Shown: positions 900-25,770, counted from the first letter of the stretch. The stretch is DNA of 64,000 nucleotides from Candidatus Bathyarchaeota archaeon (GCA_963768425.1 CAVYHV010000015.1:32001-96000), one strand, 5' to 3'. Numbers and translations are program-made. The notes: generated by a model from the letters alone, not told the origin.

Positions 900-945
900 G
901 TTGCCAAGATTTGCAGATATCCGGCTCATTTACGCCTTTGCTGTT

Positions 946-5990: not shown

Positions 5991-6189
5991 TCAAGATAAG
6001 TCAGCTCCTGACAGGGTTATCATTACCGCCCTACGCAAAAGAAACGTTTTTGTCATTTTTTTTGCACAAATTTATCTATTCAATGGAAATAGTGCATTAT
6101 GTCGAGAAGAACTGACTATTAAGATTGCTTTGCCATGAGTTCATAAAGGCTATTAACAGTTCACTCGTTTTCAGAATAAAGGTAACAAA

Positions 6190-8823: not shown

Positions 8824-8845
8824 CAAGTTAAGGTAGTGTTTAACT

Positions 8846-9214: not shown

Positions 9215-9338
9215 GTAACAAGTGAAAAACACTTTTTTGTTTATTTTCGAGGAATGATGCCATGAAATTCACCCAAAATACCTCACCTTGACTGTTTTTG
9301 AGAAAAAAAGCTTACTGGTGATGTCACCAATAGTCAGA

Positions 9339-9410
9339 GGTTCAAATCACACTAACACGTTCGGTTCAAATCACACTAACACGTTCGGTTCAAATCCCAT
9401 CGGATCCGCA
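9339..9410 (+). repeat. 24-bp tandem repeat (2 copies) running into a tRNA-3'-end-like remnant
   Basis: GGTTCAAATCACACTAACACGTTC x2, then GGTTCAAATCCCATCGGATCCGCA. Confidence 0.85.
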
Positions 9411-9547
9411 CGTAAATTCATCAAATTAGTTTTAGTGGTAAATTGGCGTCAAAATCCCCCGCCTGATACGCGCACGCTTTCTTGCCCAGATGGGAATCTC
9501 GCACACCGTTTAGGTCGAATTTAAAAAACTTGCTTATGTGATAAAGA

Positions 9548-11247
9548 CTATTGCCTTAAATTTTTGTTTTTTCTAAAGAACTGAAAGAGCGTAGCTATCA
9601 TAGCGAGGCTGACTATTGCTCCAAGGGCTATTCCTTCCAGCACTTCGGTAGGGTCAATCGCGTTTTTTGGAGAACTGCTAAGGTCTACGATGATTTGGTG
9701 GGTACAGAGGTGGTATGAGAAGGTCAGTATCCAAGAATCAGCATTTGACGAAACCGTGAAGCTTTCCGCGTTTCCGTCGATATACGCTTTGATGTTTGAT
9801 GTTTCGTTAACAAGCGACTTTGCGATGTAAACGTCGGCGTAGCCTCTTGTCCCGTTTAGTCCACTCACTGTGAAACTAAGCTGCCCGCTTGTCGAGTTGA
9901 ACGCCAAGTCAGTCACTGTCGAATTCGACGCTACAGAGAATGCGTCCTGCGCGTCCGCGGAGTTGTAGGGGGTAACCACAAAGTTAACTATGTGCTTGTT
10001 CCAGAGAAAACTGCGTTGCCCGCATAGGTGGCGTTGATGACGTAGTATCCAGTGACTGCAGGCAGCCACTCCGCTAAGAAGCCGCCGTTGGAATCTGTCT
10101 CGATTGTGGTTAGATTCAGCCAGGAGCCGCCTCCTGTTACGCTGTACGCGAGCAGAATCGGAGCTTCAGGGACACCCGGCCGTTGTAGGTTAAGCTGCCG
10201 TTGATTTCAACCATGAAGTTGGATAGTGTTGTAGAGCTTTGGCATGAAACGGCAAGAGTCGGCTTAAGCGACGAAGGATATGACAGATTAGCCGGTTTTG
10301 AATTCACAGTCAAGGTGTATGCTGCTTGCCCGTTTGCCGTTAGCACGTCCACAATTAACGGGTCCCCTAGGTTAATGTTCCAAGGTCCTGTTCCGTTAAC
10401 ACTTAAATCTGAACCGAAGCCACCTAAGACTATTTGGTGGTCAGACCAATTTACCAGGTCAATACCAATCGGGCATTCGATATCGTCTCTGGCAGCCTGC
10501 TTCCCAGCTGTCAAAGCCCTCTTCGTCGTATATTCTTATGACGGGAGTTGTGCCTCCGGCTACGGTGTCAATTGACCCATCGGACATGTTTGTAACCTGC
10601 GGCTGGATGTTGCCGAATCCGTTGCCGTCTATTATGATGGTTTGGTTTCGAGCTGCGGCTATGGGACTGACATAAGTTATGGCTGTGGGTTCTGCGACGC
10701 TAGACGGAGCATTAGGACCTACACTAACAGTGTACACTGCTTGCCCGTAAATAGTAAGTACGGCTATCAGCAGGGGATCTCCTGCCGCAATACTCCATTG
10801 AGTTTGATTGTTTGAGCCGCCGGAACCAAGTGCTGAGCCGAATCCACCCAAAACTATTTTGTCATTTGACCAAGCCTTTAAGATAACGCCTATCGAATCT
10901 GCGCCGGAACCTGGGGAATCTTGAACGCCAGCTTCCCAGCTGTTTGGTGGTTGCCCTAAATCGTAAATCCTGATGACTGGTGTGTCTCCTCCGCCAACGG
11001 TGTCGACGGAGCCGTCGCCTAAACTCAAAAGTTGAGGCTGAACGTTCCCGAAGTTGGTGCCGACTATAGTTATAGTCTGCTGTGTAGTTGCGGTTACTGG
11101 GGTTACTGAAGAAATTGAAGGTGACACTTCACCAGGCGCCCCAGCGGATGTTATGCTCTGGGATGAGCCTAACTGTAAACTTCCAGCTAACAATAATCCA
11201 CCAACCATCAAAACTATCAACAGCGCACTCCGAAGTATCGCCTTCAT
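9548..11247 (-). CDS. Exported membrane-anchored protein with two IPT/TIG-like repeats, split by frameshifts into three ORFs
   Basis: Signal peptide MKAILRSALLIVLMVGGLLL, duplicated QTI.I.G..FGN.QPQ...DGS.DTV.GG.TPVIRIYD repeat, C-terminal NSTVTDLAFNSTSGQLSFTVSG domain plus a TM helix. Confidence 0.7.
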
Positions 11248-11548
11248 GGTTACACCATATTTCCACCGTACCATCCGTAGCCTTATAAGCGGTCGCTTTT
11301 AATCATGGATCTTTAAGAAACCAAAAAAATTTCACCTTCAGCATTCTTGCCGAAGAATCAACGGCTTAAGCCTTCAAAAACTTCAATAACGGTGTAACTT
11401 TGTATTTTAAGGGCAAAATTGAACCTTTAAATAGCACATACATTAGCTTTCACCGCCGTTTTGTGTTCACTGGTGTTGTCAGCCTCAACACTTAAAACAG
11501 ATGCCCAGAATTCGGCTGATTGGCGCTTATACACATAGTCAAAATATC

Positions 11549-11736
11549 CTAGTGACGGTTTAAACGACGGCGTCAAGCTAGCCCTCGGCACTTTTGCTTA
11601 TTTTATGCTTGTTTCTTGACAATTTCTTGGTTCTTCGCAAAGAAAGGGAAAAGTACACTCGCTTTGGCTGTTCAAACCTCCCGGACCATAATGCAGTTAG
11701 AACTCTGCAGGGTTCAAAACCCGTAGAGTCCCAAAC
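11549..11736 (+). repeat. ~190-bp direct repeat copy 1, beginning with 38-bp motif copy 1 (11554-11591)
   Basis: Aligns by eye along its length with 20449-20638. Confidence 0.9.
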
Positions 11737-11901
11737 TCGAAGCCTGATACAATCCCCTTAAATAATTATTCATCTGAATTCCAATCCTCTCTTGATGCTC
11801 AGAAGGCCGAGACCGTCTGGCCTCCACCCAACCTACTTTAAAAGACCTTGGCCATGTTGTCTAAAAAAAGACAATGCAGAATTGCCTTCAGAGAATTTAG
11901 A

Positions 11902-12076
11902 GTTTGCTGAGGCTCTGGAAACTAAGGAAGAAAAGTTTTTTCTTTAGGAGAATAAAGAAAAATGCAAATTCTTCAATTGCAGCTAATTTGAAATGTAACC
12001 AGAGCCTTCTCGGCGCCCATTCTTTTATCGCTCCATTTTCTCATGGTTTTAAAGGACTAAAAAAAGGAAAAAAGGA
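11902..12076. repeat. Conserved hairpin element plus terminator tract downstream of surface-protein gene, copy A
   Basis: GCTGAGGCTCTGG...CCAGAGCCTTCTCGGC inverted ends; homologous to 16093-16258 and 25771-25945. Confidence 0.8.
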
Positions 12077-12098
12077 ATTTTGTGTTGGTTTTTGTTGT

Positions 12099-14819
12099 TT
12101 ACGGGTGTTTTCTTGTGACGAGGAGTGCGAGTACCGCGCCGATTACGATTATGATGATGGCAATTGCTATAATTCCGTATTCGACTGTGGCGTTTGACGC
12201 TAAACCTGTAGTTGGTGTTGATGTTGGTGCTGCTGTTGCTGCTGCGTTTTGTACAGGAATGGCGGTTTCTGCGCTTGAACCCCAGTAACCATTAGTGCCT
12301 GAGAAGGTTGCAGTAACAACGTATTTGCCTGGAATACTTGGAGGCGCCCACATGTAGCTGAATGCGCCTTTTGAATCAGTTGTTGCGGTGCCAAGAGTAA
12401 TGAAGTTGCCGTTCGGGTCTGTGGCAGTCAACGTTACTGTAACGCCTGTGAAATTAGTTGGTTCTGGCTGCTGCTGATAAACGTAGCCCATCCAAGCCTT
12501 CATGCTTGTTTCAGAGCAAACTGGGACTCCATATGGAAAGTCTGCTTTCTGTTCTGTTTGCTGTGTGCCAGCGGAAGTATCTATCACCGTGCCCTGAATA
12601 ATTACGCTGTTGCCTGCTGTGACAGTAGTCAGTGGCGCCTGTACAGTAGTAGCACTAGGTCCTCTGCCTACAACGTAGATTGAATTGTCATAACCGTTAA
12701 ACCATGTATTATAGCCATCAGCCATAGCATAGCTCATCTGCCCGAACTCGGCGGTTACGCCAGAAATAGTCCATATCTCCTGACCTGTAGTAGCGTTAAT
12801 AGCCCGTGCTTCCGCGCCCTTGTAAATCGGCGTTGTCCAAGTATGTGCACTGGTAACTGTGTAAACTATTCCGTTGCCAATAGCTTGCAGCTGGGTTGGA
12901 TAAACACCATAAGGATAGTTTAAGCCGGCGTTAGTACTGTTGCCTGCGCCGCCATTGCCATAAGTCCACAATAGCTTTCCAGTCAAATCGTTGTAGCAAT
13001 AGACTGTTCCTCCGTATGCGCTGCTGTAAAGATGACCATAAGCTACCGCGCCAGGTAATGTGCCTTCCGATGTACTGCCATAGTAATCAATAGCTTGTTG
13101 TGGTGGAGCCGTCCATAAATAGCTACCGTCAGTTAAGCTGTATCCAACCCATTGGACACCTTCTTTGTAATCCTGCATAAAGACGCGAGTGCTCCAATCG
13201 ACTGGGCCTTGCACGACTGTGTAGTTATTTGCTGGCGCTTGAAGTGTTTTCCACCATAGGACCGAACCGATTGCCCCCTTAGATGCGTTGAGGTTAACAA
13301 AGAAGTACGTGTAGGGAGCTGAGCTTACCCAACTGTAAAGCGCGTTTTGGCCGTTTGAAGGCATAGTACCGTTCATACAAAGTAACCCATCATTGTAGTT
13401 AGCTGAAACAACGATAAATGGCGCGGTCATGGTGTTGATATATGGTGTCGAAACGTTCCAGTCATAATAGCTTCCGCTGCCCCCATCAATTGTGCCCGTT
13501 GGGCCTCCCGGCGCTGGCCAAAGGTTCCATGCAAACAACAGAGATGAGTTCCACTCAGCAAGATTCCAATTTGGTTTCGCTGTTGTTCCTGCGTTTGCAA
13601 AGACATAGTCTAAGTAATTACCGTCTGGCCCCATTGCCCTTGCAGAGCCCTCAAGGAACGGACTAGGTGGACTTCCTAACTGTGCATTGGTGTATACGGG
13701 AATGTTAGTTACATTTAACAAAGACTGCCCTGTGTCACCGTCATAAATCAGCCAACTTGAACCAATTACAGCAACTATCATTGGCGGAGTAACTCCGTGC
13801 TCGTTCACTGTGTCAACTGATTGGACGTACCCAAATGATAAAGGCGGTATGTTAGAGTTGCTCCAAATTTGCTGTCCTGTCCGCAGGTCGACGCAAACAG
13901 TAGGTCCGTAAGCGAATGTAAATCCAAACGGTATGGTGTTCCAATAACCTGCACCTTCAAAGCCTACTGGTTCAGTATAGTAAATCATTCCATCCAGAAT
14001 TATCGGATTGTTGTATCTAATCAAATACGCAGATCCGTCGAAGTAAGTGTCCGCCGGAATGGCAACATTGTTTCCTCCAACTACTCCTCCAGATTGAAGC
14101 GACTTAGTCCACATAACATGGCTAGTTTGAGATCCTACAGCATCTCCAGGTGCAATCTGCATGAAGGTATTAGGTCCAGAGAGAGCATCCTGACCAGTAT
14201 TCATATAGCCGCCATAGTTTGGTGCACCGATACCTAGCCAGTTTGATGCAATCGTGTACCAGTTGGTGTTTTCGCCGTATATTGGTCGCGTCCAATAAGC
14301 GGTTGGAAGTGGGGCACCAGTCAAAACATTAGCTACGGGTGTGCTCGAAACAGTAACCGACGTTGATGCTGAAGCAGGTGCAAATGAATCGTTAGTGTAC
14401 GGGTCATCCGCTGTGATTGTTTCTCCCGGGTAAGAAAAGGTCAGGTTGTAAACGCCGAGTTGGTCAGGAACAAAGCTTGTGTGTTGATTTGAGGTTGTGT
14501 CGAAGACAGTAGGAAAATTCTGCGTTGTTACTGCACCATTAGGGGCGGTAATAGTAAGTTTATAGTTGTGGAATCTAAGGTTGTTACTTATCGATGCTCC
14601 GGGGTATGTATTGGTTAGCCACAGATAAACTGATATTGTCTGACCGACACCGTCTGGGTTAGGCGAAGCCCAAATGTATGCGTAGGTTGGAATTTGCCAT
14701 GCTGGCGTGTGTGCGTTAGCGTTTGGTATTATTATCAGTGAAGCTGTCATCAAAAATGTTAAAAGTACTGCAATAAAAACTGCCATTGTTTTACTTTTCA
14801 TTTTTTTCATTTTTTTCAC
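12099..14819 (-). CDS. Secreted PQQ-binding-like beta-propeller surface protein (paralogue 1)
   Basis: Signal peptide, repeated ...TG..lW propeller motifs (VDLRTGQQIWS, AINATTGQEIWT), C-terminal Ig-like domain, Thr/Ala linker and TM anchor ending RKHP. Confidence 0.85.
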   Translation of the reverse strand: MKKMKKMKSKTMAVFIAVLLTFLMTASLIIIPNANAHTPAWQIPTYAYIWASPNPDGVGQTISVYLWLTNTYPGASISNNLRFHNYKLTITAPNGAVTTQNFPTVFDTTSNQHTSFVPDQLGVYNLTFSYPGETITADDPYTNDSFAPASASTSVTVSSTPVANVLTGAPLPTAYWTRPIYGENTNWYTIASNWLGIGAPNYGGYMNTGQDALSGPNTFMQIAPGDAVGSQTSHVMWTKSLQSGGVVGGNNVAIPADTYFDGSAYLIRYNNPIILDGMIYYTEPVGFEGAGYWNTIPFGFTFAYGPTVCVDLRTGQQIWSNSNIPPLSFGYVQSVDTVNEHGVTPPMIVAVIGSSWLIYDGDTGQSLLNVTNIPVYTNAQLGSPPSPFLEGSARAMGPDGNYLDYVFANAGTTAKPNWNLAEWNSSLLFAWNLWPAPGGPTGTIDGGSGSYYDWNVSTPYINTMTAPFIVVSANYNDGLLCMNGTMPSNGQNALYSWVSSAPYTYFFVNLNASKGAIGSVLWWKTLQAPANNYTVVQGPVDWSTRVFMQDYKEGVQWVGYSLTDGSYLWTAPPQQAIDYYGSTSEGTLPGAVAYGHLYSSAYGGTVYCYNDLTGKLLWTYGNGGAGNSTNAGLNYPYGVYPTQLQAIGNGIVYTVTSAHTWTTPIYKGAEARAINATTGQEIWTISGVTAEFGQMSYAMADGYNTWFNGYDNSIYVVGRGPSATTVQAPLTTVTAGNSVIIQGTVIDTSAGTQQTEQKADFPYGVPVCSETSMKAWMGYVYQQQPEPTNFTGVTVTLTATDPNGNFITLGTATTDSKGAFSYMWAPPSIPGKYVVTATFSGTNGYWGSSAETAIPVQNAAATAAPTSTPTTGLASNATVEYGIIAIAIIIIVIGAVLALLVTRKHP

Positions 14820-14980
14820 TGAATTGCTTATTTATCGATCGCCTTATATGCCTTTGTTGTATAACGCAAAATAATGGACAAAACTCTTGAAATCCCACCT
14901 TTTGACTGAATATTTCACGTTTTTAGTTAATAAAGGAGAAGCATCACCAAAAAACGTCACAATTCAGTTTATGTAGCACC
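14820..14980. promoter_or_regulatory. Divergent promoter region, duplicated at 19300-19470
   Basis: Near-identical non-coding block (CTTATTTATCGATC.CCTTATATGCCTTTG ... AATTCAGTTTATGTAGCACC) upstream of paralogues 1 and 2. Confidence 0.7.
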
Positions 14981-14998
14981 TCAGGTAACAGTGTTTGC

Positions 14999-15964
14999 AT
15001 GAAAGAGCTTGAGCAGATAGATATCAAGATTCTCAAAATGCTTCTCAAAGACGGTCGAAGAAGCTTTTTAGAAATAGCTACACAATGCCACACCTCAAAA
15101 AATGTCATCTGGGCACATTACAAAGAACTCAAGAAGGCAGGCATAATTGTTGGCGCGACTATTCAATTTAACTATCAAAAATTTGGCTACCATGGCTTAG
15201 CGACCATAATGATGAATGTAGAATCGCAAAATCTTGCAAATGTTTTCAGTCGCATTAGCGAAATCCCTGAGATGCATATGTTTCGCTACTATAATTCTGT
15301 CTATAATATCGCTGCAATCTCCACTCTGAAAAACATGAGTGATTTAGAACACGTGAAACAAGTCATAAACAAAAACAACAAAATAAATGAGTTCAAAACT
15401 TATCTTTGGGTCGATGTTCGAAACATACCTGAAAACATTTTGTCTGATCCTTCTGACCATCAAGATGATTATGTTTGCCCTCCAGTAAATAATCAAGAAA
15501 ATTTCCAAAAAATTGATGAAATCGACCTACAAATAATCGATGCGCTCACTTTAAATGGGCGCTTGCCATTCCGACAAATCGCTCAACAGATTGGGGCATC
15601 AACCACCACAATAACTAGAAGATACGAACGGCTTAAGAAAAATAATCTAATCAAGGTCTCGATTCAAATTAATGCGTTGAAATTGGGTTTCCAAAGCATT
15701 CTGGAAGTTAGCTTAGCATTAGCTGATCAAAATGAGATAAACGAAGTGGCAAACAAGCTATCTAGAATCGCAGGAGTATCATATCTTGTAAAAATAAGCG
15801 GAAATTATGACTTGTCAGTCGTTGTTTTAGTAAAGGACTGTAATAACGTGGTTAAAATTAATGACGCAATCTTACAAATACCGAACATCAAAAAGATGGA
15901 AGCAACATTAAGGACACTTCCCGCCACTTGGTCTGGGAAACGTCAATATATATCTACGTTTTGA
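14999..15964 (+). CDS. Tandem (double) Lrp/AsnC family regulator
   Basis: Two HTH-RAM units (IDIKILKMLLKDGRRSF; IDEIDLQIIDALTLNGRLPFRQIA). Confidence 0.9.
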   Translation: MKELEQIDIKILKMLLKDGRRSFLEIATQCHTSKNVIWAHYKELKKAGIIVGATIQFNYQKFGYHGLATIMMNVESQNLANVFSRISEIPEMHMFRYYNSVYNIAAISTLKNMSDLEHVKQVINKNNKINEFKTYLWVDVRNIPENILSDPSDHQDDYVCPPVNNQENFQKIDEIDLQIIDALTLNGRLPFRQIAQQIGASTTTITRRYERLKKNNLIKVSIQINALKLGFQSILEVSLALADQNEINEVANKLSRIAGVSYLVKISGNYDLSVVVLVKDCNNVVKINDAILQIPNIKKMEATLRTLPATWSGKRQYISTF

Positions 15965-16092
15965 TAAATTGAAAAGGAATTGTCATTTTCTTGAATAAAA
16001 ACACTATTAATAGCAGATTATGGTTCGAATCCCTCCTCAGTGTGAACTTAATAAAAACAAGGAAAACAAATGATTTTTTTGAAAAAATTGGG

Positions 16093-16258
16093 GTTTGCTG
16101 AGGCTCTGGAAACTAAGGAAGAAATTTTCTTTTTTAAGGAGAAAAAGAAAATGAACATTCTTCAAGTGCAGCTATTTCGAACATGACCAGAGCCTTCTCA
16201 GCCATTTATCTTTTCATCTCTTCTTGTTTTTTGGGGACTAAAAAAAGGGAAAGGGAGT
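16093..16258. repeat. Conserved hairpin element plus terminator tract, copy B
   Basis: GTTTGCTGAGGCTCTGGAAACTAAGGAAGAAA...CCAGAGCCTTCTCAGC. Confidence 0.8.
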
Positions 16259-16277
16259 TGTGTTAAGCACTTTTAAT

Positions 16278-17858
16278 TTATGGATGTTTTCTTGTGACAA
16301 GGAGTGCTATTACTGCGATTCCCACGATTATGACGATGATGATTGCGATACCTACGTATTCGATTGTTGATTGGGTTGCAATTCCGGTAAGAGGTGTCGC
16401 TGTTGGTGCTGCTGTTGCTGCGGGAGAGCCGGCATAGACGAAAGTTTCAGCCGCCGATGAGTAGTAGCCATTAGTTCCTGCAAAAGTTGCAAATATAGTG
16501 TAGTTACCTGTTATGCTTGGAGTCCATGTTAATCTGTAGCTGCCGCTCTGATCAGTCGTGGCGTAACCTATGGGGTAGTGGTTTCCATTAGAGTCTAAAA
16601 CAGCCAATTGCACTTGAACACCTGTGAAGTTAGTTGGTTCAGCCTGATCCTGGTAGACGTAGCCCATCCATGATTGCATGCTTGCGTCAGATGCACATGG
16701 AACCCCGTGTGGAAAGTCTGCTGCCTGTTGACTTTGGGTCGTGCCAGATGATATGTCCATCACTGTGCCGGTGATCGTTACCGGTGTAGCTGTCGTCACT
16801 CCTAGGTTAGGTGCTGAAACAGTGGTAGCACTGGGGCCTCTGCCAATACTGTATATTTGGTTGACGTAGCCGTTCATGCAGGTTATGTATCCATCCGCCG
16901 TAGCCCATTGTGGAGCAGCACTGGAAGTCCACTCGCTCGGGTATTCTGAGAGTGCCCATATTTGTTGTCCTGTTGTGGCGTTAACAGCGGTTGCTTCAGC
17001 GCCTTTGTACAGCGGGTCAGGAATGGTGTGCTCATCAGTAGCCAAGTATACTACTCCGTTAGCAATGGATTGTATCTGGGTTGGGTAAACTCCGTATGGT
17101 GTGTTTAAGCCAGCATAAGTGCTGTTACCTTCACCACCGTTGCCCCAAGTATAGACTAGTTGTCCAGTTACGTCGTTGAAGCAGTAGAGTATTCCTCCGA
17201 ATCCATCGACATAGAGGTTCCCGTAAGCAACTACTCCTGGAGGGGGTTGCCCTGGGTCGTAATAGTAATTAAAGGCGGCTGCGGTTGGAGTTGTCCATAG
17301 TAGTTGGCCCGTGTTTAGACTGTATCCTTGGAATTGTATAGTTTCCAGCGAATAAAGTGTGAAGACGCCGGTTTGGAAGTCGACTGCACTCTGTAAGAGA
17401 GTGACGTTGCCTGCTGGCGGATTATACGTCTTCATCCACAGGATTGAACCGATTGCACCGACAGATGAGTTAAGGTTGACGGCGAAGTATGTGTAAGGAA
17501 GTTGCGGGTATCCTGCTTTAGTCGCGCCGAAACCAACGGGTAGAGAGCCGTTTCTGCAAAGCATTACATCGCCATATTTTACTGCGAGTATCGACACGGG
17601 GTTTGATCCAGTTGGCGGTTGCACTATTTGTCCTGTGACGGCGCTGGGTGTTGCAGGTGGCGGCGGCATGGTGTTAAGCCATGGTAGTGAAATGTTCCAG
17701 TCATAAGTTGTTAATGAGCCGGAATTGATGCTTTTTATGGGAGCAGTGGTTCCAGGTGCAGCGGCATTGGAGTTAAGAGGTATGTTTGCATTCACCGTAA
17801 TTGAGGAGCCGCGTGGAACGAATGTTGTAAGGCCAGTTTGGTAGATAACCCATTTCAC
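16278..17858 (-). CDS. Beta-propeller surface protein paralogue 2, C-terminal part (frameshift near 17845)
   Basis: Homologous to the C-terminal half of paralogues 1, 3 and 4; TM anchor ending RKHP. Confidence 0.8.
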   Translation of the reverse strand: MKWVIYQTGLTTFVPRGSSITVNANIPLNSNAAAPGTTAPIKSINSGSLTTYDWNISLPWLNTMPPPPATPSAVTGQIVQPPTGSNPVSILAVKYGDVMLCRNGSLPVGFGATKAGYPQLPYTYFAVNLNSSVGAIGSILWMKTYNPPAGNVTLLQSAVDFQTGVFTLYSLETIQFQGYSLNTGQLLWTTPTAAAFNYYYDPGQPPPGVVAYGNLYVDGFGGILYCFNDVTGQLVYTWGNGGEGNSTYAGLNTPYGVYPTQIQSIANGVVYLATDEHTIPDPLYKGAEATAVNATTGQQIWALSEYPSEWTSSAAPQWATADGYITCMNGYVNQIYSIGRGPSATTVSAPNLGVTTATPVTITGTVMDISSGTTQSQQAADFPHGVPCASDASMQSWMGYVYQDQAEPTNFTGVQVQLAVLDSNGNHYPIGYATTDQSGSYRLTWTPSITGNYTIFATFAGTNGYYSSAAETFVYAGSPAATAAPTATPLTGIATQSTIEYVGIAIIIVIIVGIAVIALLVTRKHP

Positions 17859-19299
17859 CTACAGCTGGAATAGGGATCGTTGGAAGAAGGACTCCGTTGG
17901 ATGCATTTACTGGGTCTGGTGATAAACTTCCACCGCCGGTGTACGGATTAATGTCGTACTGCCAAAGTTTAGACATGTTCCATTCAGACATGTACCAATT
18001 TGGATTAGCAGCAGTGCCAATGTTGGTTATGACGTACTTTAATTCTTCACCGCTCGGACCCAAGATGTTATTGCTTACAACAGTATTCGGGAAGGCTACA
18101 ACGCTTGGGGGGGATGTAGCTATAGGTACGACGTATGAAGTGCTTGCGGGAAGATTAGTTACGTTGAACAGCGAGTCTCCTGTGTATGCATCATAAAGCT
18201 GCCACTGGCCTGTAATTGAGTTTGGTGAGACTAAGATTGGCGGGTAAACACCATGTTGGTCGGGGTCCCAGAGGCTGTAGATGTAGCCGAATGAAATTGG
18301 GGGTATGTTTGGGTTACTCCAGAGTTGTTGTCCTGTGCGGAGGTTAATTGCTACGGTGGGTCCGCTGCCGGGGCCAGTGAATGACGCTGGTTGTGTGTAG
18401 AATAGTACTCCGTCCATTATTATCGGATTGCTGAATCTTGGCTGATATGCAGATCCTTCGTAATAGGATGCTCCCTGAACAGCACCGCTGGGATTTGAGC
18501 CGCCGGCTGAAAACATGTTGCCTCCAACCACTCCTCCAAATTGAAGCGGCAAAGTCCACATAAGATGAGAAGTTAAAGGTCCTACGGCATCTGTATGATA
18601 CAGTGCTGCGTTTGCAGTGGCGCCATATCCTTCTGGCGGTCCCGAACCTGAGCCTAGCCAGTTTGACGAAAGTGGCCACCAGTTAGAGTCTGCACCGTAT
18701 ACTGGTTCTTGCCAGTAGCTTGTCGGTAGGGGTTCACTAGTTATAGCGCTGGAAATTGGTGCTGTTTGCACGGTGAGCGTTGTTGTTGCATTGCTAGGAA
18801 GATATGTATCGTTCACCATCGGTGATTGGGCGTAGCCGTTGCCATTTGCGCCGTACACTTGTCCTGGATAATAAAAGCTGAAAGTGTAGGTACCAACAGC
18901 GGTAGGAGTAAAGGATGTTTCCTGATTTGATGTTGTATCAGAGATGATTGGAAAAGTCGTTGTTGTTTTTGCCCCATCCGGTGCAGTTACGGTAAGCTGA
19001 TAGCCTAGGAATCTATAGTTGTTTGAAAGTAAGGCTGCGCTCGCTGTGTAACCGTTCGTTCCGACAGCGGCAGTTGTTCCACCGGGTGCTCCGTAAACTT
19101 CAGTAAGCCACATGTAAACGTTTATTGTTTGACCGACACCTATAGGATTAGGTTCGGCAACAATGTAGGCTTGTGTTGGAATTTGCCACACAGGTGTATG
19201 TGCGTTAACGCTTGGTATTATCATTAGTGAAGCTGTCATCGAAAATGTTAAAAGTACAGCAATAAGAATAGCCATTGTTTTGCTTTTCAGTTTTTTCAT
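17773..19299 (-). CDS. Beta-propeller surface protein paralogue 2, N-terminal part
   Basis: Signal peptide nearly identical to paralogue 1; PNPIGVGQ, NPIIMDG and INLRTGQQLWS motifs. Confidence 0.8.
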   Translation of the reverse strand: MKKLKSKTMAILIAVLLTFSMTASLMIIPSVNAHTPVWQIPTQAYIVAEPNPIGVGQTINVYMWLTEVYGAPGGTTAAVGTNGYTASAALLSNNYRFLGYQLTVTAPDGAKTTTTFPIISDTTSNQETSFTPTAVGTYTFSFYYPGQVYGANGNGYAQSPMVNDTYLPSNATTTLTVQTAPISSAITSEPLPTSYWQEPVYGADSNWWPLSSNWLGSGSGPPEGYGATANAALYHTDAVGPLTSHLMWTLPLQFGGVVGGNMFSAGGSNPSGAVQGASYYEGSAYQPRFSNPIIMDGVLFYTQPASFTGPGSGPTVAINLRTGQQLWSNPNIPPISFGYIYSLWDPDQHGVYPPILVSPNSITGQWQLYDAYTGDSLFNVTNLPASTSYVVPIATSPPSVVAFPNTVVSNNILGPSGEELKYVITNIGTAANPNWYMSEWNMSKLWQYDINPYTGGGSLSPDPVNASNGVLLPTIPIPAVGEMGYLPNWPYNIRSTRLLNYGECKHTS

Positions 19300-19458
19300 T
19301 TTTTTCCCTGAATGGCTTATTTATCGATCTCCTTATATGCCTTTGGTGCCTAACGCGAAAAAATGGACAAAACTATAGAAATCCAGTCTTTTGACTGAAT
19401 ATTTCTCGTCTTTAGCTAAAAAATGGGAAGCATTATCAAAAAAACAGGATAATTCAGT

Positions 19459-19695
19459 TTATGTAGCACCATCTCCAGCTTTATCCCACATCTCAAGCTT
19501 CTCATATTTCATTGCCGCCTCCTCATATCGCCCAGCTCTTTCAAGATTTCTGGCTTCTTCCATTATACATTCTCGTGGCGGAGGCGGAGGGACTGATAAA
19601 TCTGTTCAATCTTTTCTAAACTTTATACGGCAACGTGGACACCAAAAGACATCTGCGAAGGTATTGGTCGGATTTCGAAAGACGAGCTTTTGTTA
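19459..19695 (-). pseudogene. Truncated hypothetical gene remnant
   Basis: Reads ...FWCPRCRIKFRKD*TDLSVPPPPPRECIMEEARNLERAGRYEEAAMKYEKLEMWDKAGD and ends at the edge of the duplicated promoter block. Confidence 0.45.
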
Positions 19696-19829
19696 AAATC
19701 ATGGGGATATCTTGACGCCAGTTATTACCATTTAATTGAGCTGATTTTTGTGTAAATTATTCTGGTGTTCTATGGTAGAATTGAAATTTGCAAAAGACCT
19801 TTTAAGGTATATTTCGTAAGCTTGCCCAA

Positions 19830-20090
19830 ATGTTTCTTCAGGTTTTGGCTGCTGTAGTTCATAACCAATTTGAAGTCATTCACCCCTTCCAAGATGGCAA
19901 CGGGAGAGTCGGGCGACTATTGCTAAATAACATATTACTAAAACATAATCTGCCACCCTTAAACATCGAATTAAAAAATCGAGCCCAATACTTCGCCGCC
20001 CTACAAGCATACGAAAAAGAAAACAAAATACGCCCAACGTTGGAGCTCATGCTAAAAGAATACCATGCCCTCAAAAAAATCATCAAATAG
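19830..20090 (+). pseudogene. Fic-domain protein, C-terminal fragment
   Basis: Canonical Fic motif HPFQDGNGRVGR lies only about 17 aa from the ORF start; the N-terminal part is missing. Confidence 0.8.
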
Positions 20091-20267
20091 GTGACTACAA
20101 AAAACGGAAATGTAGTCACCCAGAATTCCTGGCGGCTGTTTGACGTGCAGAAAGTCGCTGGCCTGAATCTGGTCCGACCTACTCCCGCGTAGAAATGCTC
20201 CATTTGACTGTTTTTAAAGTATTTTGTTATTCTTGCTCCTTTAGCTCTTTGTGGTTTGAACCCGACA

Positions 20268-20397
20268 GAGGCTGTGTAAAAACTCAAATCGAGTTCAAAA
20301 AATTGCCTCAAATGTGCATTGAAATTTTTTTTAGGCCAGCATTATTTGCATGAAGCCAGCAATTTTCTGAGATCAAGAATAGTTTTTACATAGTCTG
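20268..20397. mobile_element. 130-bp MITE, copy 1
   Basis: TIRs GAGGCTGTGTAAAAACT / AGTTTTTACATAGTCTG; 4-bp TSD GACA (20264-20267, 20398-20401); inverted homologue at 23152-23281. Confidence 0.85.
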
Positions 20398-20448
20398 GAC
20401 ACGGGTCAAATCCCGCCCGACCCACTCCCAAGGCACACATTTAAGGTT

Positions 20449-20638
20449 CTAACGACGGTTTAAACGACGGCTTCAAGTTAGCCCTCGGCACATTTTTGCT
20501 TATTTTCTGCTTGTTTCTTGGCAATTTCTTGTTTCTTCGCAAAGAAAGGAAAAAGTACATTCGCTTCGGCTGTTCAAACTCCCGGACCATAATGTGGTTT
20601 GAACTCTGCGGGGTTCAAAAACCAATCGAGACCCAAAC
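20449..20638 (+). repeat. ~190-bp direct repeat copy 2, containing 38-bp motif copy 2 (20454-20491)
   Basis: GACGGTTTAAACGACGGCTTCAAGTTAGCCCTCGGCAC followed by sequence homologous to 11592-11736. Confidence 0.9.
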
Positions 20639-20717
20639 CGCTTCAGGCTCGAATCCAATCATAAAATTCTCATCTTATTTGCCCTGATCCCTTGAGATAA
20701 ATAAACATGAAGAAACT

Positions 20718-21168
20718 TCACTTGGCTTCGTCTGAAAAGAGTTGCTTTCCTTTTTCTGTGATTTCGATGGCACCTACTTGCTTGAAAATATTAACGTTGT
20801 CAGTAACGTTCCAGTATTCTGCGAGTTTGCCATTAACTATACGATAGATGTCAACAGCCTCAGCTCTTATCTTCTTTCCAGTAGGACTTAGTCCCATAAA
20901 TTCGCCTTTTGTGGGTCCCAGTATAGGAAAGGCGAACCCACACCTTGTTCCCTTCAGCGATGATGTCTTCAATAGATTCATGCCAATCAGGAAATGCGTT
21001 AAGACCCATAATAAATAATTGTTTGAGACCTTCTCGACCGACATTCTTGGAGCGGTCGATATAATCTGGTGCCACAAAATCGTCTATTAATTTCAAATAG
21101 TCCACGTTTCGATTATTATAGGCTTCAATAAATCTGCGAACAATCGCTTTATTCTCTTCTAAAGACAA
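20718..21168 (-). CDS. SnoaL-like ester cyclase, frameshifted near 20910
   Basis: MSLEENKAIVRRFIE...AFPDWHESIEDIIAEGNKVWVRLSYTGTH joined to GEFMGLSPTGKKI...YRIVNGKLAEYW. Confidence 0.85.
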
Positions 21169-21333
21169 AAAATCACCAGTAAATTCTATTCTCTTTTTGA
21201 GATTTAAGCGTGTTGTGAAGTGCAAGTTTTAGACTTTAGGGCTTATCCACTTCTTTGCAGTCTATCAAAGACTCCAAGAGTAACCGTTTCCCAACGTCAT
21301 TTTTAGATACTTTTCTTGTCGCATTCAAATCTC

Positions 21334-22149
21334 TTAAGTAATATCAACACGTTTTGAAGACTCGGCACTATGATCAAGAAAAAGAGCTATTAAATTCAAT
21401 GTGTTGTCAGTTATCAGCTCGCGCGATAAACCACTTTTAATTCCCATTTGATTCAAAGTCGTTCGTCTTAATTCCATCTCAGAAAGCAGACCATTCATAA
21501 GCATAGTTACATATTGAACGATAATACTTTCTTTCATATCATTCTTTATTGTTTTATCTTTCTTGCCTTTTCTAACTGCTTTTGACCAAAACTCACCATT
21601 TCTCAACATCTGAATAAAGAATTCAATGAAATGGGGCTCTTCAAAATATTTCTCAAATTCAAAATCTTCTAATGGCGAGAGGTCTTCAGTCAACTTGTTC
21701 AGGGTAGACTGTCCTACTTTGTTGACGATAAGTTCAATTATGGATTCAGGCATTAAGTTCATGTTTTTAATGTGCTCAAAAGTGTCATTGGTGATCTTTA
21801 GTACTATTGGGTTGTCGATGCCATCTTTGAGTGTTTTTGCGCAAAGGAATAGAACCTGTTCTTTTCCGGATACGTCAGTTGGTAGAGTGGCAATCATGGT
21901 TTCATTGAGTTCTTTGAAGACTTTTTTTCCGACGGCAAAAAAAACATCGTTTTTGTTTTTAAAATAATTATATATTGTTGTGCGACTTACAAACGCTGCT
22001 TCGGCAATATCTTCTAGAAGGACCTCATTTATAGGTTTTTTAGAGTAAAATTTTTCCGCTACGGCGAGAATTTCTTCTTTTGTTCTCTCTTTCTTTCTGT
22101 CGCGCAATTGTTTTTTTTCTTTGGAGGCATTGTTTTGAGTTAGTTTCAT
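21334..22149 (-). CDS. TetR/AcrR family regulator
   Basis: RDRKKERTKEEILAVAEKFY...LEDIAEAAFVSRTTIYNYFKNK. Confidence 0.9.
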   Translation of the reverse strand: MKLTQNNASKEKKQLRDRKKERTKEEILAVAEKFYSKKPINEVLLEDIAEAAFVSRTTIYNYFKNKNDVFFAVGKKVFKELNETMIATLPTDVSGKEQVLFLCAKTLKDGIDNPIVLKITNDTFEHIKNMNLMPESIIELIVNKVGQSTLNKLTEDLSPLEDFEFEKYFEEPHFIEFFIQMLRNGEFWSKAVRKGKKDKTIKNDMKESIIVQYVTMLMNGLLSEMELRRTTLNQMGIKSGLSRELITDNTLNLIALFLDHSAESSKRVDIT

Positions 22150-22206
22150 GACGTGAAAACATAATTGGCATCGCTGTTTATAAATATTTTACAGCTAATA
22201 CATAAT

Positions 22207-22221
22207 TTTACACCGTGTAAA
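22207..22221. promoter_or_regulatory. Candidate TetR operator palindrome
   Basis: TTTACAC-C-GTGTAAA perfect inverted repeat between the divergent tetR and membrane-protein genes. Confidence 0.5.
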
Positions 22222-22267
22222 TATTTATATGCGACGTGTACTATAGTAATTAAATGTCGTGTTTTGT

Positions 22268-22969
22268 ATGTCAACTGAAGAAGAAAATTTTTTGAGCAAA
22301 GAAAAGAGCGTTTTGCGATGGAGCGGTCTGGCTGGTATTCTGGCTGGAGTCTTTTTTATTTGCACCATCGTCACGCTAATTAATTTTGGGAATTCGACAA
22401 CAGCCAACGTTGCGGATTTGATCACAAAGTTTCCAGATCACAGAATGGACCTTGCGGTGGGAAATGTCTTCTACTTTTTGGTCAGCGTCTCGTTAGTTGG
22501 TCTCGCGCTTGGCCTGTATCAGGCTCTTCGAAGGGCGAGCATTGGACTCCCGCTCTTCGGGACTGTTCTATTCGTTCTAGGTCTAGGAGTAACCTTTATT
22601 GAAGATACTACGCAGATCGCTTTCGACCCGATCTCCAAACTCTATAATGCTGCCGCAGCGACCTCCACGGACAAAGCTACACTCACCCTCATATGGCAGG
22701 CAACACAGGGTATGTTCAATCAGTTTGACGTCGGAGCAACACTCCTCCTCTCCACAGGGTTAATCGTTCTTGGAGCAGCCATGATCAGGGTACCAGCTTT
22801 TGGCAAAATCTTCGGCGGGCTAAGTATTGCAATCGGAGCGGCTCAGATCGTAGGGATATCTTTCCTTTCAACCAATTCTGCCGCATACGCACCATTCGCC
22901 CTCCTAGCCTTCTTAATCTTCCCAGTCGTCTTCGGATGGAAACTCTACAGTCTATCAAGGAAGCCATAA
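22268..22969 (+). CDS. Multi-pass membrane protein (DUF4386-like)
   Basis: About six hydrophobic helices; LRWSGLAGILAG N-terminus. Confidence 0.7.
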   Translation: MSTEEENFLSKEKSVLRWSGLAGILAGVFFICTIVTLINFGNSTTANVADLITKFPDHRMDLAVGNVFYFLVSVSLVGLALGLYQALRRASIGLPLFGTVLFVLGLGVTFIEDTTQIAFDPISKLYNAAAATSTDKATLTLIWQATQGMFNQFDVGATLLLSTGLIVLGAAMIRVPAFGKIFGGLSIAIGAAQIVGISFLSTNSAAYAPFALLAFLIFPVVFGWKLYSLSRKP

Positions 22970-23151
22970 GAAATCTTGGAATTGTTCTTGGGGGACTCCT
23001 TTTACGGAGTCTTTCAACACAATAAACTGTGTTGGAATCCCAACGGGCCGCCATAAGAATTTTTTAAGAAGAATTGAGGATTCGCTTAGCGCGCGCTAAA
23101 GTGTTTTCAAACGCGCTTGACGCTTTTAGGCGATTGGACCTGACCCCATTT

Positions 23152-23281
23152 GAGACTGTGTAAAAACTATTTTTAATTTCAGAAAATTGCTGGTTTTATC
23201 TAAATAATGTTGGTTTAAAAAAGGATTCAAAACATATTTGAAGCAATTTTTTGGGCTTGATTTGAGTTTTTACACAGCCTG
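23152..23281. mobile_element. 130-bp MITE, copy 2 (inverted relative to copy 1)
   Basis: TIRs GAGACTGTGTAAAAACT / AGTTTTTACACAGCCTG; 4-bp TSD ATTT (23148-23151, 23282-23285). Confidence 0.85.
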
Positions 23282-23326
23282 ATTTGGGGTCAAATCCCAC
23301 CGGACTCGCACCTTTAAAGTTCTAGC

Positions 23327-23364
23327 GACGGTTTAAACGACGGCTTCAAGCTTGCCCTCGGCAC
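23327..23364 (+). repeat. 38-bp motif copy 3
   Basis: GACGGTTTAAACGACGGCTTCAAGCTTGCCCTCGGCAC. Confidence 0.9.
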
Positions 23365-23524
23365 TTTTGAGTTCAATAGAAGCTTGTTTTAACAATAAAG
23401 TCACACTTTGGAATAATTTGCCTACAACTCAGGGATTCGTGAAATATTGAAAATGAGATGAATAGAGTCAAATTGTAGAAATCTTTTTACTTCTTGTTGC
23501 TCATAAGGACATAGGCGACTAAAA

Positions 23525-23734
23525 GTGACCCTAACAATCAATAGCGATGAACTGAAAACTGTCCTTGATAAACTAGATACGGTGAAACTTGAACTTTTAC
23601 GATTGAGAGCAATGTTGTTGCCAGAAGAGGAGGCTACGGAACAAGAAAAGAAAGAGATCAAAAAAGCGAAACAAGAACTATCAAAAGGGTCAAGGATAAA
23701 CCTTAAAGAGTTTATTGATGAACTGGGCTGCTGA
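23525..23734 (+). CDS. Putative antitoxin
   Basis: 69-aa ORF (LLPEEEATEQEKKEIKKAKQELSKGSRINLKE) directly upstream of a RelE-like gene. Confidence 0.75.
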   Translation: MTLTINSDELKTVLDKLDTVKLELLRLRAMLLPEEEATEQEKKEIKKAKQELSKGSRINLKEFIDELGC

Positions 23735-23741
23735 CTTCTAA

Positions 23742-24003
23742 TTGTTTGACATCACTGTTGCTCAACGAGCCCAGAAGAGTCCAAGAAGCTGCCTGAACAC
23801 CTCAAACGCAGAATTGTCGAACTTCTTTTAATCTTACGGGAAAACCCAGTCCCAGCAGAATACTATGATGTAAAGAAACTGAAGGGACTGGCAGACACAT
23901 ATAGAATTAGAATCGGTGATTTCAGAATTATCTATGAAATTTCTTGGGACAAAGCGGCGGTGAATATATTATATATTGGGTCCGGGAAAACGCGTATTCT
24001 TGA
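23742..24003 (+). pseudogene. relE: RelE/ParE toxin, frameshifted (absent from ORF track)
   Basis: MFDITVAQRAQK / KKLPEHLKRRIVELLLILRENPVP..YDVKKLKGLADTYRIRIGDFRIIYEI. Confidence 0.8.
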
Positions 24004-24006
24004 ATC

Positions 24007-24045
24007 GACGGTTTAAACGACGACATGAAGCTAGTCCCTCGGCAC
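24007..24045 (+). repeat. 38-bp motif copy 4
   Basis: GACGGTTTAAACGACGACATGAAGCTAGTCCCTCGGCAC(CA), 3 bp after the toxin stop codon. Confidence 0.9.
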
Positions 24046-24265
24046 CAAATATCCTTAATTTAAGGTTATTTTGCAATATTGGGCATAAATTACAACATTA
24101 TATGCGCTCTGCAAGCAGGGTAATGAGATATGAAAGAGGGAACGTTTCTACTCATAGACTTTACCGGAAAAGCAAAATATTGATTGAAGCAAACAATACT
24201 GCTTCACGATTGGAGGTAACAGATTGATTTCGGGGACAAGGGGTCTCCAGATATTTTTATAAATG

Positions 24266-24535
24266 TTAGAGCATTTTTGAAAAGTCATCGTACACTTTGC
24301 TTCTATGGCCGACAAAAAGAATGACTACTTGGTTTTTGTTTTGGTCTATCTCGTAGATAACTCTGTAGTCGCCTACTCGTAGACTCCAGAAATCTGATTG
24401 TTTTAGGGGTTTTCCTGTTTTGTCGGGGTTTTCACGCAGTTGCTTTGCGCTCTCGACTATTCTTGTTCGGACGTGTTTTTCAGTTTTTTGGAGTTCTTTT
24501 GCTGCTTTAGGGTGCAGAAGTACTTTGAAAGTCAC
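24266..24535 (-). CDS. relE: RelE/ParE family toxin
   Basis: FKVLLHPKAAKEL...GKPLK...WSLRVGDYRVIYEID...ILFVGHRSKVY. Confidence 0.9.
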   Translation of the reverse strand: MTFKVLLHPKAAKELQKTEKHVRTRIVESAKQLRENPDKTGKPLKQSDFWSLRVGDYRVIYEIDQNKNQVVILFVGHRSKVYDDFSKML

Positions 24536-24753
24536 TCTAGTTCCTCTATAGGAATGAGGGATTCTGGGCGTTGTTTTGCTTCTTCGCTACGTTCCATGAG
24601 TGTGTTGAAGAAGTTGCATGTTTTTTCGCGTTCTTGATAGTAGGTGATGATTGATTTTATGGCGTCGCTTCGGTTTTTGAAGCGGCCTTCTGCTACCCAT
24701 CCATCTATTTCCTCGAGGGTTTTTTGTGGAAGACGTAGTTGTACTTGAGCCAA
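24532..24753 (-). CDS. Ribbon-helix-helix antitoxin
   Basis: VQLRLPQKTLEEIDGWVAEGRFKNRSDAIK; 4-bp overlap with the toxin gene. Confidence 0.85.
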   Translation of the reverse strand: MAQVQLRLPQKTLEEIDGWVAEGRFKNRSDAIKSIITYYQEREKTCNFFNTLMERSEEAKQRPESLIPIEELE

Positions 24754-24852
24754 ATATGTCGCCGTAAACAGTACTGTTTACAACTCACTTAAACGTTTCC
24801 TAAACAACCATCCGAGTCCCGACCCACTCTGTCTTGCGGATAATGGTGCAAC

Positions 24853-24890
24853 GAAGGTTTAAACGACGACATGAAGCTAGCCCTCTGCAC
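24853..24890 (+). repeat. 38-bp motif copy 5
   Basis: GAAGGTTTAAACGACGACATGAAGCTAGCCCTCTGCAC(CA). Confidence 0.85.
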
Positions 24891-25770
24891 CAACTATACT
24901 TTTAAGAAAAAAGAGCTCTCGGTGAGAGAAAATGGCTTTGAGCTTGTTCTGATGCACCGAGTTTCCACGTAGTCTAATATGCTTGATCGTGTTTGTTCTG
25001 TGGCTTTTGTAAGGTTTATGGCTCTGTTTCTGGCTTTTCATTCTTTCGTCTTTCTGGTTTTCTCCATTTCTCAAAATGGTTCAGACTTTTTAATGCCACA
25101 AACAAGAGCCCGAGCACATTGGATTATAAAGCGTACAACTGGAAGGTTTCCCGGTTGATACCGGGCACTATGCGAAAACATCTGTAGAAGGTTAGTGTTT
25201 TGAAATAATGCGTTCAAAACCAAAAATTTTATTGGGTTAATTAGCTTGGCTTCTACCGATCCTTTCATTTCATCTGACTGGAAGAGGATAGAGAAAAGAT
25301 ATCAAACTCTATGAATATGTCTAAAAGGATGCGACGAGAGTAGGCTCAGCTAGATGTAGGATTATTCAGATGGAACAGTGTGCTAATTTTATTGGTTTTG
25401 ATCGCTTAGAATTTCTCTCAGGAACGTCCCAATCACTGCATATTTTTTCTAACGTTAAAGCAATGGGTTGATAGGATTCATATGGCGTTTCTTTGACACC
25501 TAACATTATCTTATATGCCAAGATATAATATAGTTATTTCATTGGCTGTAATATTACGGTTTTCGACATAAGGCTAAAATCAACAAAGATATTCATATTC
25601 TAAGTTTTGGCTAACAAGTCTTCTCAAAAAGTCTTCAATCCCGCTTTATCATAGATTTCTGTAAATGCTTTGATGATTTGAGGCTTTGCTCAGTTAAGTC
25701 TTGATTTTCTTGTGGCTTTTAGAGAGTCTATTGAAACTTGGTCAAATTGATCCAAAATTCGCACGATGTA

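Follow-up and report, generated by a model that had tools for sequence, protein, structure and literature searches.

The site and its copies

The window analysed here is a stretch of 64,000 nucleotides from a peat-soil Candidatus Bathyarchaeota archaeon (GCA_963768425.1 CAVYHV010000015.1:32001-96000), which corresponds to positions 32001-96000 of contig C15 in the 2.96-Mb assembly of the genome under study (G000). It carries an array of gene modules separated by a repeated site of 38 nt, and each copy of this site is composed of a conserved 27-nt arm, called P in the following, and the last 11 nt of tRNA-Phe(GAA), called the core. An intact tRNA-Phe(GAA) gene lies on the same strand as the copies at C15:28554-28628 (window -3446 to -3372) according to ARAGORN, which predicts no tRNA inside the window; the gene is thus situated 3.4 kb ahead of the window start and 14.9 kb ahead of the first copy. 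Its 3' end reads ...CCCTGCCCTCGGCAC.

The presence of five same-strand copies of a ~38-bp site had been claimed in an earlier note on this DNA and is borne out by a pattern search, by alignment and by shuffling. The 38-nt pattern, with up to three mismatches allowed, matches the window at 11554, 20454, 23327 and 24853, always on the + strand, and 0 of 100 shuffles gave any match at this tolerance. The copy at 24007 was recovered in the alignment; it reads AGTCCCTC in place of AGCCCTC, and this single extra base is the only reason why it escaped the pattern. The 13-mer GGTTTAAACGACG is exact at all five sites, and with up to two mismatches it has 8 matches (5 of them exact) against 1.68 expected.

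Copy 1 (11554..11591, +) consists of the arm GACGGTTTAAACGACGGCGTCAAGCTA and the core GCCCTCGGCAC, the latter being tRNA-Phe positions 64-74, numbered back from the 3' end. The core is likewise exact in copy 2 (20454..20491, +) and copy 3 (23327..23364, +), contains one inserted base, a T, in copy 4 (24007..24045, +), and has one mismatch in copy 5 (24853..24890, +), where P differs at one position as well. Both copies 4 and 5 are followed by CA, the end of copy 4 reading ...GGCACCA. The “tRNA-acceptor-like” ending that had been remarked upon was correctly seen and turned out to be the key to the site, since all five copies end in the tRNA-Phe 3' end. Copy 5 forms the right border of the island, beyond which the chromosome is syntenic.

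The 27 nt of P are not tRNA sequence. They are laid out as GACGGTTTAAACGACG, a variable hexamer and AAGCTA, and contain the only clear palindrome of the site, GTTTAAAC; the imperfect inverted repeat GGTTTAAA-7 bp-TTCAAGYT proposed earlier was not confirmed. The 3' part of P resembles a T-loop region that may have decayed. A vestigial T-arm in this part (GGCT/AGCC) was rejected, because across copies no covariation links the variable hexamer to the constant 3' side. The idea that P is a piece of a split integrase open reading frame (ORF), as in elements of the SSV type, was also rejected: the open frame meets stops directly upstream of P, and a long ORF is absent. Single-strand DNA folds of five copies (+ strand) and two copies (- strand) gave z values from -1.27 to +0.47 and no common structure. 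With its fixed arm, its 11-nt tRNA end and no shared fold, the site is indeed unlike attC, as had been suspected. No Rfam family matches at the site; the only gathering-level match in the window is an archaeal RNase P RNA (RF00373, 191 bits, 56125-56430, - strand).

In the whole G000 assembly only three further copies were found (C13:100611, C13:102151 and C24:6004, all on the - strand). The sites are therefore rare, clustered and co-oriented within each cluster, and not scattered in random orientation.

Insertion polymorphism in relatives

The locus displays an intact tRNA at one border and direct repeats of its 3' part at all five copies, the arrangement that defines tRNA-targeting elements. 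Moreover, a comparison with contig C4 of G002, a genome of the same genus, reveals a presence/absence polymorphism whose borders fall at the putative attachment (att) sites. From the tRNA-Phe end to the last P-core the distance is 0.9 kb in G002 and 28.3 kb in G000. The order in G002 is tRNA-Val, tRNA-Phe, 190 nt, a degenerate P-core, a RelE unit and a P-core. This RelE unit is 90.4 % identical over 732 nt to window 23320-24047, with homology ending at the P-cores, and past the last P-core follows a flank that repeats the sequence found after the tRNA. In the left flank, tRNA-Val and tRNA-Phe are common to both genomes, together with two proteins of 57–64 % amino acid identity that lie ~13 kb from tRNA-Val in G002 and 2.7 kb from it in G000. 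In the right flank, the ORF at 29230-29574 has a counterpart with 73 % amino acid identity at equal spacing from the last P-core (~4.1–4.2 kb). The proposal that a recombination junction has been re-used to accrete cargo is thus upheld by the identity of the tRNA ends and by the island that is present in one and absent from the other of two genomes of one genus.

Across genomes, one and the same unit start succeeds different unit ends, and vice versa, and the break always occurs at the P-core. For example, the start of the ParE unit is preceded by at least four unrelated sequences and its end is followed by three different ones. Serial insertion at the tRNA explains these varied junction partners without any reordering.

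Distribution of P and identity of the core

P, with up to two mismatches, is present in 10 of 24 other genomes of the genus and in none of 16 genomes from the order's other genera. A larger draw found it in 31 of 81 genomes of the genus, G000 included, a reversed control pattern giving 2 hits in total. Scanning one genome per GTDB species with the exact pattern returned 48 stretches, of which 44 are titled Bathyarchaeia or Bathyarchaeota; the others are two from Hadarchaeota, one from Methanobacteriota and one from Clostridia, and the last of these, which lacks a tRNA-like core, is probably due to chance. JGI metagenomes contributed 86 stretches with P, on contigs that show the same layout, and viral contigs contributed 0 matches to the pattern. 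Altogether 125 unique copies of P were gathered, nearly all of them from Bathyarchaeia. The collecting pattern fixes 20 bases of P, and conservation at these positions is for that reason partly given by construction; the first unconstrained position after the pattern is an A in 65 of 68 copies.

The core usually corresponds to the local tRNA gene. Assignments were made by comparing 3' ends and not by ARAGORN isotype names, which are unreliable for intron-bearing tRNAs; at default settings the program missed an intron-bearing tRNA-Leu on contig C14. (Many tRNA genes of G000, on several contigs, carry introns, some of them predicted to be long.) Among 68 unique copies, 30 cores are Phe-like, 13 Leu(TAG)-like, 13 Ser(CGA)-like and 12 of other kinds, and the core is followed by CCA in 39 and by a T-run in 19. 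Where a tRNA gene lies upstream on the same strand within the fetched locus, the core equals the 3' end of that very gene in 14 of 20 cases. Rare core variants track the local tRNA as well, namely GCCCGTAGCAC in G010:C16 and G022:C10, and GCCCGCTGCAC in locus L093.

Of the remaining copies in G000, those on C13 stand 1.5 kb apart at a contig end and have the cores GCCCGCAGCAC, which is the 3' end of tRNA-Ser(CGA), and GCCGCAGCAGC, which is decayed; between them lies a 41-nt tRNA-Ser 3' fragment without P. The C24 copy is found 386 nt downstream of tRNA-Ser(CGA). The surrounding locus (L003, G000:C24:2700-6510) runs behind this tRNA from the P-core through DUF2683/ParE and a tRNA-Ser 3' fragment, ATCCTGCCCGCAACACCA, to three PIN-toxin modules, one of them paired with a MazE-type antitoxin, and thus constitutes an islet rich in toxin-antitoxin (TA) genes at a second tRNA.

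The units and their genes

The array begins at the tRNA gene, and the genes of its units lie on both strands. Directly 3' of tRNA-Phe there is a left arm of 130–185 nt, designated Y, that recurs after copies 1 and 2 with 89–93 % identity. Unit 1 (~14.9 kb in total, + strand) begins right after the tRNA outside the window and occupies window positions 1..11553. In addition to its Y-type left arm, Pfam searches identified in it an insertion sequence (IS) transposase of the IS5/IS1182 type, PAS sensor kinases, TrmB/AsnC regulators, a Rieske protein and a TIG-domain protein. The transposase gene (DUF772 + DDE; C15:28745-30310) is inserted in Y, 130 nt after tRNA-Phe. It was considered as a recombinase for the site and rejected, as it interrupts Y and its relatives stand upstream of P in either orientation; it is read as an inserted IS. 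Homologues are often seen 150–1500 nt upstream of P elsewhere (L073, G002:C3, G001:C9), again in either orientation, which suggests that transposases of this type prefer to insert into conserved arms.

Unit 2 (11592..20453, +; 8.9 kb) opens with a Y-type arm (11592..11736, +) that is 90.8 % identical to C15:28618-28747 and 89.2 % identical to the Y after site 2. It encodes no integrase. Its genes include two PQQ beta-propeller/Ig surface-type proteins recognised by Pfam (12099-14819 and 16278-17858, both -), an AsnC-type regulator (14999-15964, +), a 508-aa ORF to which no family was assigned (17773-19299, -) and an 86-aa C-terminal fragment of a Fic protein (19830-20090, +). Unit 3 (20492..23326, +; 2.8 kb) has a Y-type arm at 20492-20638, followed by a SnoaL-like cyclase gene (20718-21225, -), a TetR regulator (21334-22149, -) and a DUF4386 membrane protein (22259-22969, +). 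The distal part of this Y (20572-20658) is similar to tRNA-Ala(CGC) repeats on contig C10 (28756 and 34433), namely to their 3' end and flank, and the arms themselves may for this reason be mosaics of older tRNA-end junctions.

The two remaining units are TA modules. In unit 4 (23365..24006, +; 0.64 kb) a small antitoxin-like ORF (23525-23734) is accompanied by a RelE/ParE-like toxin frame. The RelE-like gene (~23740-24016) has no frame of 50 aa or more that starts with ATG, GTG or TTG, and its N-terminal part is out of frame. The core frame of the toxin terminates at a TAA at 24014-24016, that is within the motif and not 3 bp before it, as had been stated; the orthologue in G002 is open from a TTG and has its TGA stop 6 nt before its CGACGG. 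Unit 5 (24046..24852, -; 0.81 kb) encodes a ParE toxin (24266-24535, -) and a ribbon-helix-helix (RHH) antitoxin (24532-24753, -). The same ParE/RHH module is also found between two P-cores in L089 and at the right end of an integrase-bearing element in L084. The gene modules announced in the earlier note are therefore largely as described: TetR, the membrane protein, ParE/RHH, the surface proteins and the Fic piece stand, whereas the cyclase is not intact but frameshifted, being spread over two overlapping frames (20718-21077 and 20860-21225).

The units between the copies are mutually unrelated in sequence. Elsewhere, small units likewise carry ordinary cargo, such as a single PQQ propeller (1.9 kb), CbiM/Q/O with a dehydrogenase (4.7 kb), or a PIN protein with a PAS kinase (3 kb).

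Inverted repeats that resemble miniature inverted-repeat transposable elements (MITEs) lie ~55 nt upstream of copies 2 and 3. The first (20269..20396) has 38-nt arms and a 52-nt spacer, the second occupies 23131-23302 in unit 3, and the arms of both are similar to the 3' terminus of the IS110-family elements of G000 (on C13 and C14). Further members of this family, which measures ~140 bp and has long inverted arms around a ~50-nt spacer, are located at G000:C13:102200-102345, C19:5297-5457 and C33:12858-12984. Homology between the C13 and C14 copies of the IS110-family element stops inside sequence that is similar to a MITE arm. In their outer part the MITE arms look like a tRNA T-arm with acceptor end, the tRNA resembled being tRNA-Ala(CGC) ahead of copy 2 and tRNA-Arg(TCT) ahead of copy 3.

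A probable tandem array of integrated elements

The reading that we favour, with a probability of about 0.7, is that the repeats represent attR-type junctions, formed as DNA segments integrated one behind the other at the tRNA-Phe(GAA) 3' end. It is suggested by the fact that the core is the tRNA-Phe end and that an intact tRNA gene stands upstream on the same strand. A circular segment would carry an attachment site composed of P, core and P' in that order, in which P' is the left arm and would be of several types: Y, the leader of a TA module, or the 3' flank of an integrase gene. An inverted copy of P in the left arm was seen once, in L084, and was rejected as a general feature of P', as the left half of P recurs in inverted form within 400 nt in only 2 of 125 copies. 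The segment would be inserted by site-specific recombination, with the crossover within the 11-nt core or at its edge; the tRNA gene would then be rebuilt from the segment's own copy of the core (attL), and the displaced tRNA end would remain behind P (attR). Each new insertion at the rebuilt tRNA would push older units outward and thereby yield the order tRNA-Phe, U1, P-core, U2, P-core ... U5, P-core, chromosome, in which older units would lie farther from the tRNA. Only copies 4 and 5 have altered cores, which fits this order, the evidence being weak.

The enzyme is likely a member of a family of tyrosine integrases with a zinc ribbon that is abundant in the genus and would catalyse the insertions. 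This family is present in 72 of 81 genomes of the genus, where it is often multicopy and its members often contain internal stops, and weak zinc-ribbon matches were obtained in the N-terminal part of two of the PF00589 integrases (L098 and L084). Locus L084 holds a complete element: tRNA-Phe (42-116), 33 nt, an integrase (PF00589, reverse strand, 150-1299, split over three frames), two ORFs, the ParE/RHH pair and a P-core (3917-3957). The locus begins at the contig start, and after the P-core comes a second left arm like the one behind the tRNA. Furthermore, an integrase or a C-terminal remnant of one is found less than 1 kb downstream of the P-core in L056, L060, L073 and L098 (4 of 68 copies), in each case pointing the opposite way, so that its 3' end faces the core, and an intact integrase on G000:C14 takes the equivalent position behind an intron-bearing tRNA-Leu.

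The latter belongs to a second array (G000:C14:260234-291320), in which the tRNA-Leu gene (260234-260356) is followed by an intact zinc-ribbon tyrosine integrase of 453 aa (260427-261785, -) and, at ~285585 and 291070, by further 23-nt repeats of the tRNA end, each succeeded by a C-terminal integrase remnant. A distinct PF00589 recombinase of 454 aa is encoded at G000:C28:17733-19166, and 60 nt past its stop stands the left half of P (ACGGTTTAAACGA); the upstream context is that of some full P sites, and a T-arm-like sequence replaces the usual end of P and the core.

The earlier note had supposed that no recombinase is encoded in the array, and this is indeed the case: PF00589 has 7 matches in G000 and none of them is on C15. 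Taking a tRNA end or a P-core as the left limit and P as the right one, 32 units of 0.64–14.9 kb could be delimited, and 31 of them, including all five described here, contain no integrase. The five units would therefore be either decayed elements or non-autonomous ones that depended on an integrase in trans. The predominance of integrase-less units suggests that they might be moved by a recombinase supplied in trans; any mobility of the units at present is hypothetical.

Several observations weigh against this scheme. A tblastn search with five tyrosine recombinases (E<1) returned nothing on C15, so that the 28-kb array contains no detectable integrase or remnant of one. If autonomous elements had simply decayed, more than a single integrase-bearing unit among 32 would usually be expected. 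The co-occurrence of integrase and P is uninformative, because 72 of 81 genomes have the integrase and 31 of 81 have P. The link between the two depends mainly on L084, a locus whose integrase is frameshifted and whose ParE-P part could represent an older unit in its own right. The att repeats of the C14 array extend over 23 nt from the T-loop to the CCA (GTTCAAGTCCCACCCC(G/T)GCACCA) and lack the P arm; the combination of an intact integrase and a P-less array implies that P may belong to another subfamily or enzyme. In 3 of the 20 cases mentioned above, the closest tRNA on the upstream side disagrees with the core (L085, G003:C1, and G000:C24 with 2 mismatches), and in a further 3 the core is off by one base or one indel. 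Finally, no free or circular P-core-P' form was found among viral contigs (0 hits) or among 80 metagenome loci (0 with terminal overlap). As for sequencing reads, no more than 0.15 of the sampled words was present in any of 11 runs, and assembly of four of them gave only low-depth contigs of 150–380 nt with no informative joint, the sole one connecting the two MITE copies, on opposite strands.

Junctions of this general kind are not confined to P. At least three further conserved arm families are fused to tRNA 3' ends in G000: an arm with ...TACTGGTAAATTGG... precedes Ser(GGA), Ser(TGA) and Leu(GAG) ends, a hairpin CGCTTAA-N4-TTAAGCG precedes tRNA-Arg ends, and an arm ending in ...GGTATATGTGAGCATATGCATAGGT precedes tRNA-Gln ends. 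Their positions are C2:5195, C6:958, C6:8029, C10:3751, C13:24932 and C22:99195; C8:91893, C18:25518 and C19:1255; and C14:16429 and C18:30665. Junctions at tRNA ends, from several families of elements, seem to pervade this genome.

Alternative explanations

The lack of integrase genes in nearly all units invites a bolder proposal, to which we attach a low probability. It postulates for the Bathyarchaeia of this genus a tRNA-anchored cassette system, in which integrase-less units that end in P (0.6–15 kb, carrying TA pairs, propellers, kinases or transporters) would be inserted, and perhaps excised, by a zinc-ribbon integrase acting in trans at the 3' ends of tRNA-Phe, -Leu and -Ser. The 11-nt tRNA end would then be the exchangeable crossover segment, and the whole would amount to a functional integron analogue that evolved from tRNA-targeting elements.

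An integron-like cassette system in the stricter sense, with the P-core in the role of attC, the tRNA 3' end in the role of attI and a chromosomal or neighbouring tyrosine integrase that excises, inserts and reorders cassettes in trans, appears unlikely too. It would account for the 31 integrase-less units out of 32 (0.64–14.9 kb), for their “cellular” cargo (TA pairs, PQQ propellers, sensor kinases, a cobalt transporter of the energy-coupling factor type), and for the near invariance of P over more than 100 copies with variable flanks on either side. In L098, L060, L073 and L056 the integrase or its remnant lies directly distal to the last P-core, much like a platform gene, and one class of right ends (class U=3) has the same sequence with different cores, Phe-like and Ser-like. 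However, serial insertion at the tRNA gives varied junctions without excision or reordering, and no circle, excised form or empty-site variant was seen in run data that consist of short low-depth contigs. In addition, the site has no attC-like fold, the genes lie on both strands without a common promoter, and several of them are broken (SnoaL, RelE, the Fic piece), as expected of relics. The integron analogy of the earlier note, taken as membership, is not sustained: the anchor is a tRNA gene and not attI with intI, there is no attC hairpin, both strands are used, and the L084 element carries its own integrase.

It is far less probable that P is a regulatory or RNA element, such as an archaeal promoter with TTTAAA as TATA box ~22–25 nt before the core, or a protein-binding site, that was copied along with tRNA ends. 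The TATA-like TTTAAA does lie inside a perfect 8-bp palindrome, and P is strongly conserved, but the genes downstream of P run in either direction, P has neither an Rfam match nor a common fold, and its variable hexamer lacks a compensating partner. Moreover, P stands exactly ahead of an 11-nt end that tracks the local tRNA, and homology breaks there; a promoter alone would be insufficient to produce this.

The explanation that survives least well, that the repeats are ends of IS elements or MITEs or that unequal crossing-over duplicated the tRNA-Phe flank as a local segment, could invoke the IS110-family gene before C13:102151, the MITE-like repeats that adjoin several copies, the IS5/IS1182-like genes that follow the tRNA flank here and precede P in several relatives, and the threefold presence of Y, but it is hardly credible, given that P has no inverted partner at the other unit end (2 of 125 copies within 400 nt), that every copy is oriented alike relative to the tRNA, that a MITE accompanies only 2 of the 5 window copies and is a separate feature, that P elsewhere adjoins three different tRNA ends, and that units unrelated in sequence are not duplicates of one another. 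A known IS end, which the earlier note had listed as a possible alternative, is disfavoured on the same grounds, namely the missing terminal inverted partner and the co-orientation of the copies with the tRNA. The IS110-family gene adjoining C13:102151 was also rejected as the enzyme: it recurs on C14 without any P and is read as a neighbour.

Relation to known systems

The array is best read as a case of a known process, tRNA-targeted tandem integration, with three distinguishing traits: a tRNA identity of 11 nt, a shared invariant arm, and units that mostly lack an integrase. According to the portions available of PMC6563490, in which Das et al. 2013 is cited for arrays, elements with tyrosine recombinases in archaea and bacteria build arrays through the re-use of one site, and att sites in Thaumarchaeota, whose median length is 17 bp, go down to 8 bp. 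The available portions of PMC8371274 likewise mention that integrated archaeal elements may be devoid of an integrase after gene loss and that tandem integration is known. As far as these excerpts go, the tandem arrays at tRNA genes of Sulfolobales (“gene capture”), Thaumarchaeota, Thermococcales and Methanococcales share with the present one the tRNA 3' end as target, the rebuilt tRNA and its partial copy as a direct repeat, as well as the re-use of the site into arrays, the loss of integrase genes and, in relatives of the phylum, a short att identity. Here, in contrast, the identity with the tRNA comprises just 11 nt (positions 64-74), a single, nearly invariant arm of 27 nt is common to units at three tRNAs, and 31 of 32 units are without integrase and carry one to a few ordinary genes each. 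A very short att site in a tRNA gene without stem-loop is also a property of the haloarchaeal SNJ2-type integrase system, the IntSNJ2 site measuring 14 nt in the part of PMC8371274 that describes it; unlike there, no virus is involved here.

Integrons have been reported in Archaea, to judge from the accessible text of 10.1101/2022.02.06.479319 (PMC9668308). As in integrons, ordered sites of the same orientation separate small modules, TA pairs among them, and no recombinase is encoded inside the modules. In contrast to systems based on IntI and attC, there is no intI beside the array and no attI, the site is made of a duplex-type arm and a tRNA end, and genes occur on both strands.

Non-autonomous elements that are moved by a recombinase supplied in trans are familiar from bacteria: the cis-mobilisable elements (CIMEs) related to streptococcal integrative and conjugative elements (ICEs), with their accretion-mobilisation, and the integrative mobile elements exploiting Xer recombination (IMEX), which use XerCD at dif. 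In these systems, as in the present one, att-flanked units without recombinase accumulate in tandem beside autonomous relatives. The array described here differs by its archaeal host and by its tRNA-gene target, its enzyme being a candidate and its mobilisation hypothetical. A description of the P arm or of tRNA-anchored integrase-less units in Bathyarchaeia was not found in the limited full-text literature searched.

Implications

The array offers a concrete, sequence-defined view of how uncultured Bathyarchaeia of peat and soil gather accessory genes, which they stack behind tRNA genes in units tagged by a 27-nt arm. Since P is short, nearly invariant and represented by more than 100 copies, it can serve as a marker for variable gene islets in these genomes, and it provides a defined substrate for testing an unstudied family of archaeal integrases. 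If the units are not mobile in trans, the locus would be a clear but ordinary example of tandem integration followed by decay. If integrase-less units are in fact mobilised in trans, it would represent an integron-like device for gene shuffling, based on a different site and a different enzyme.

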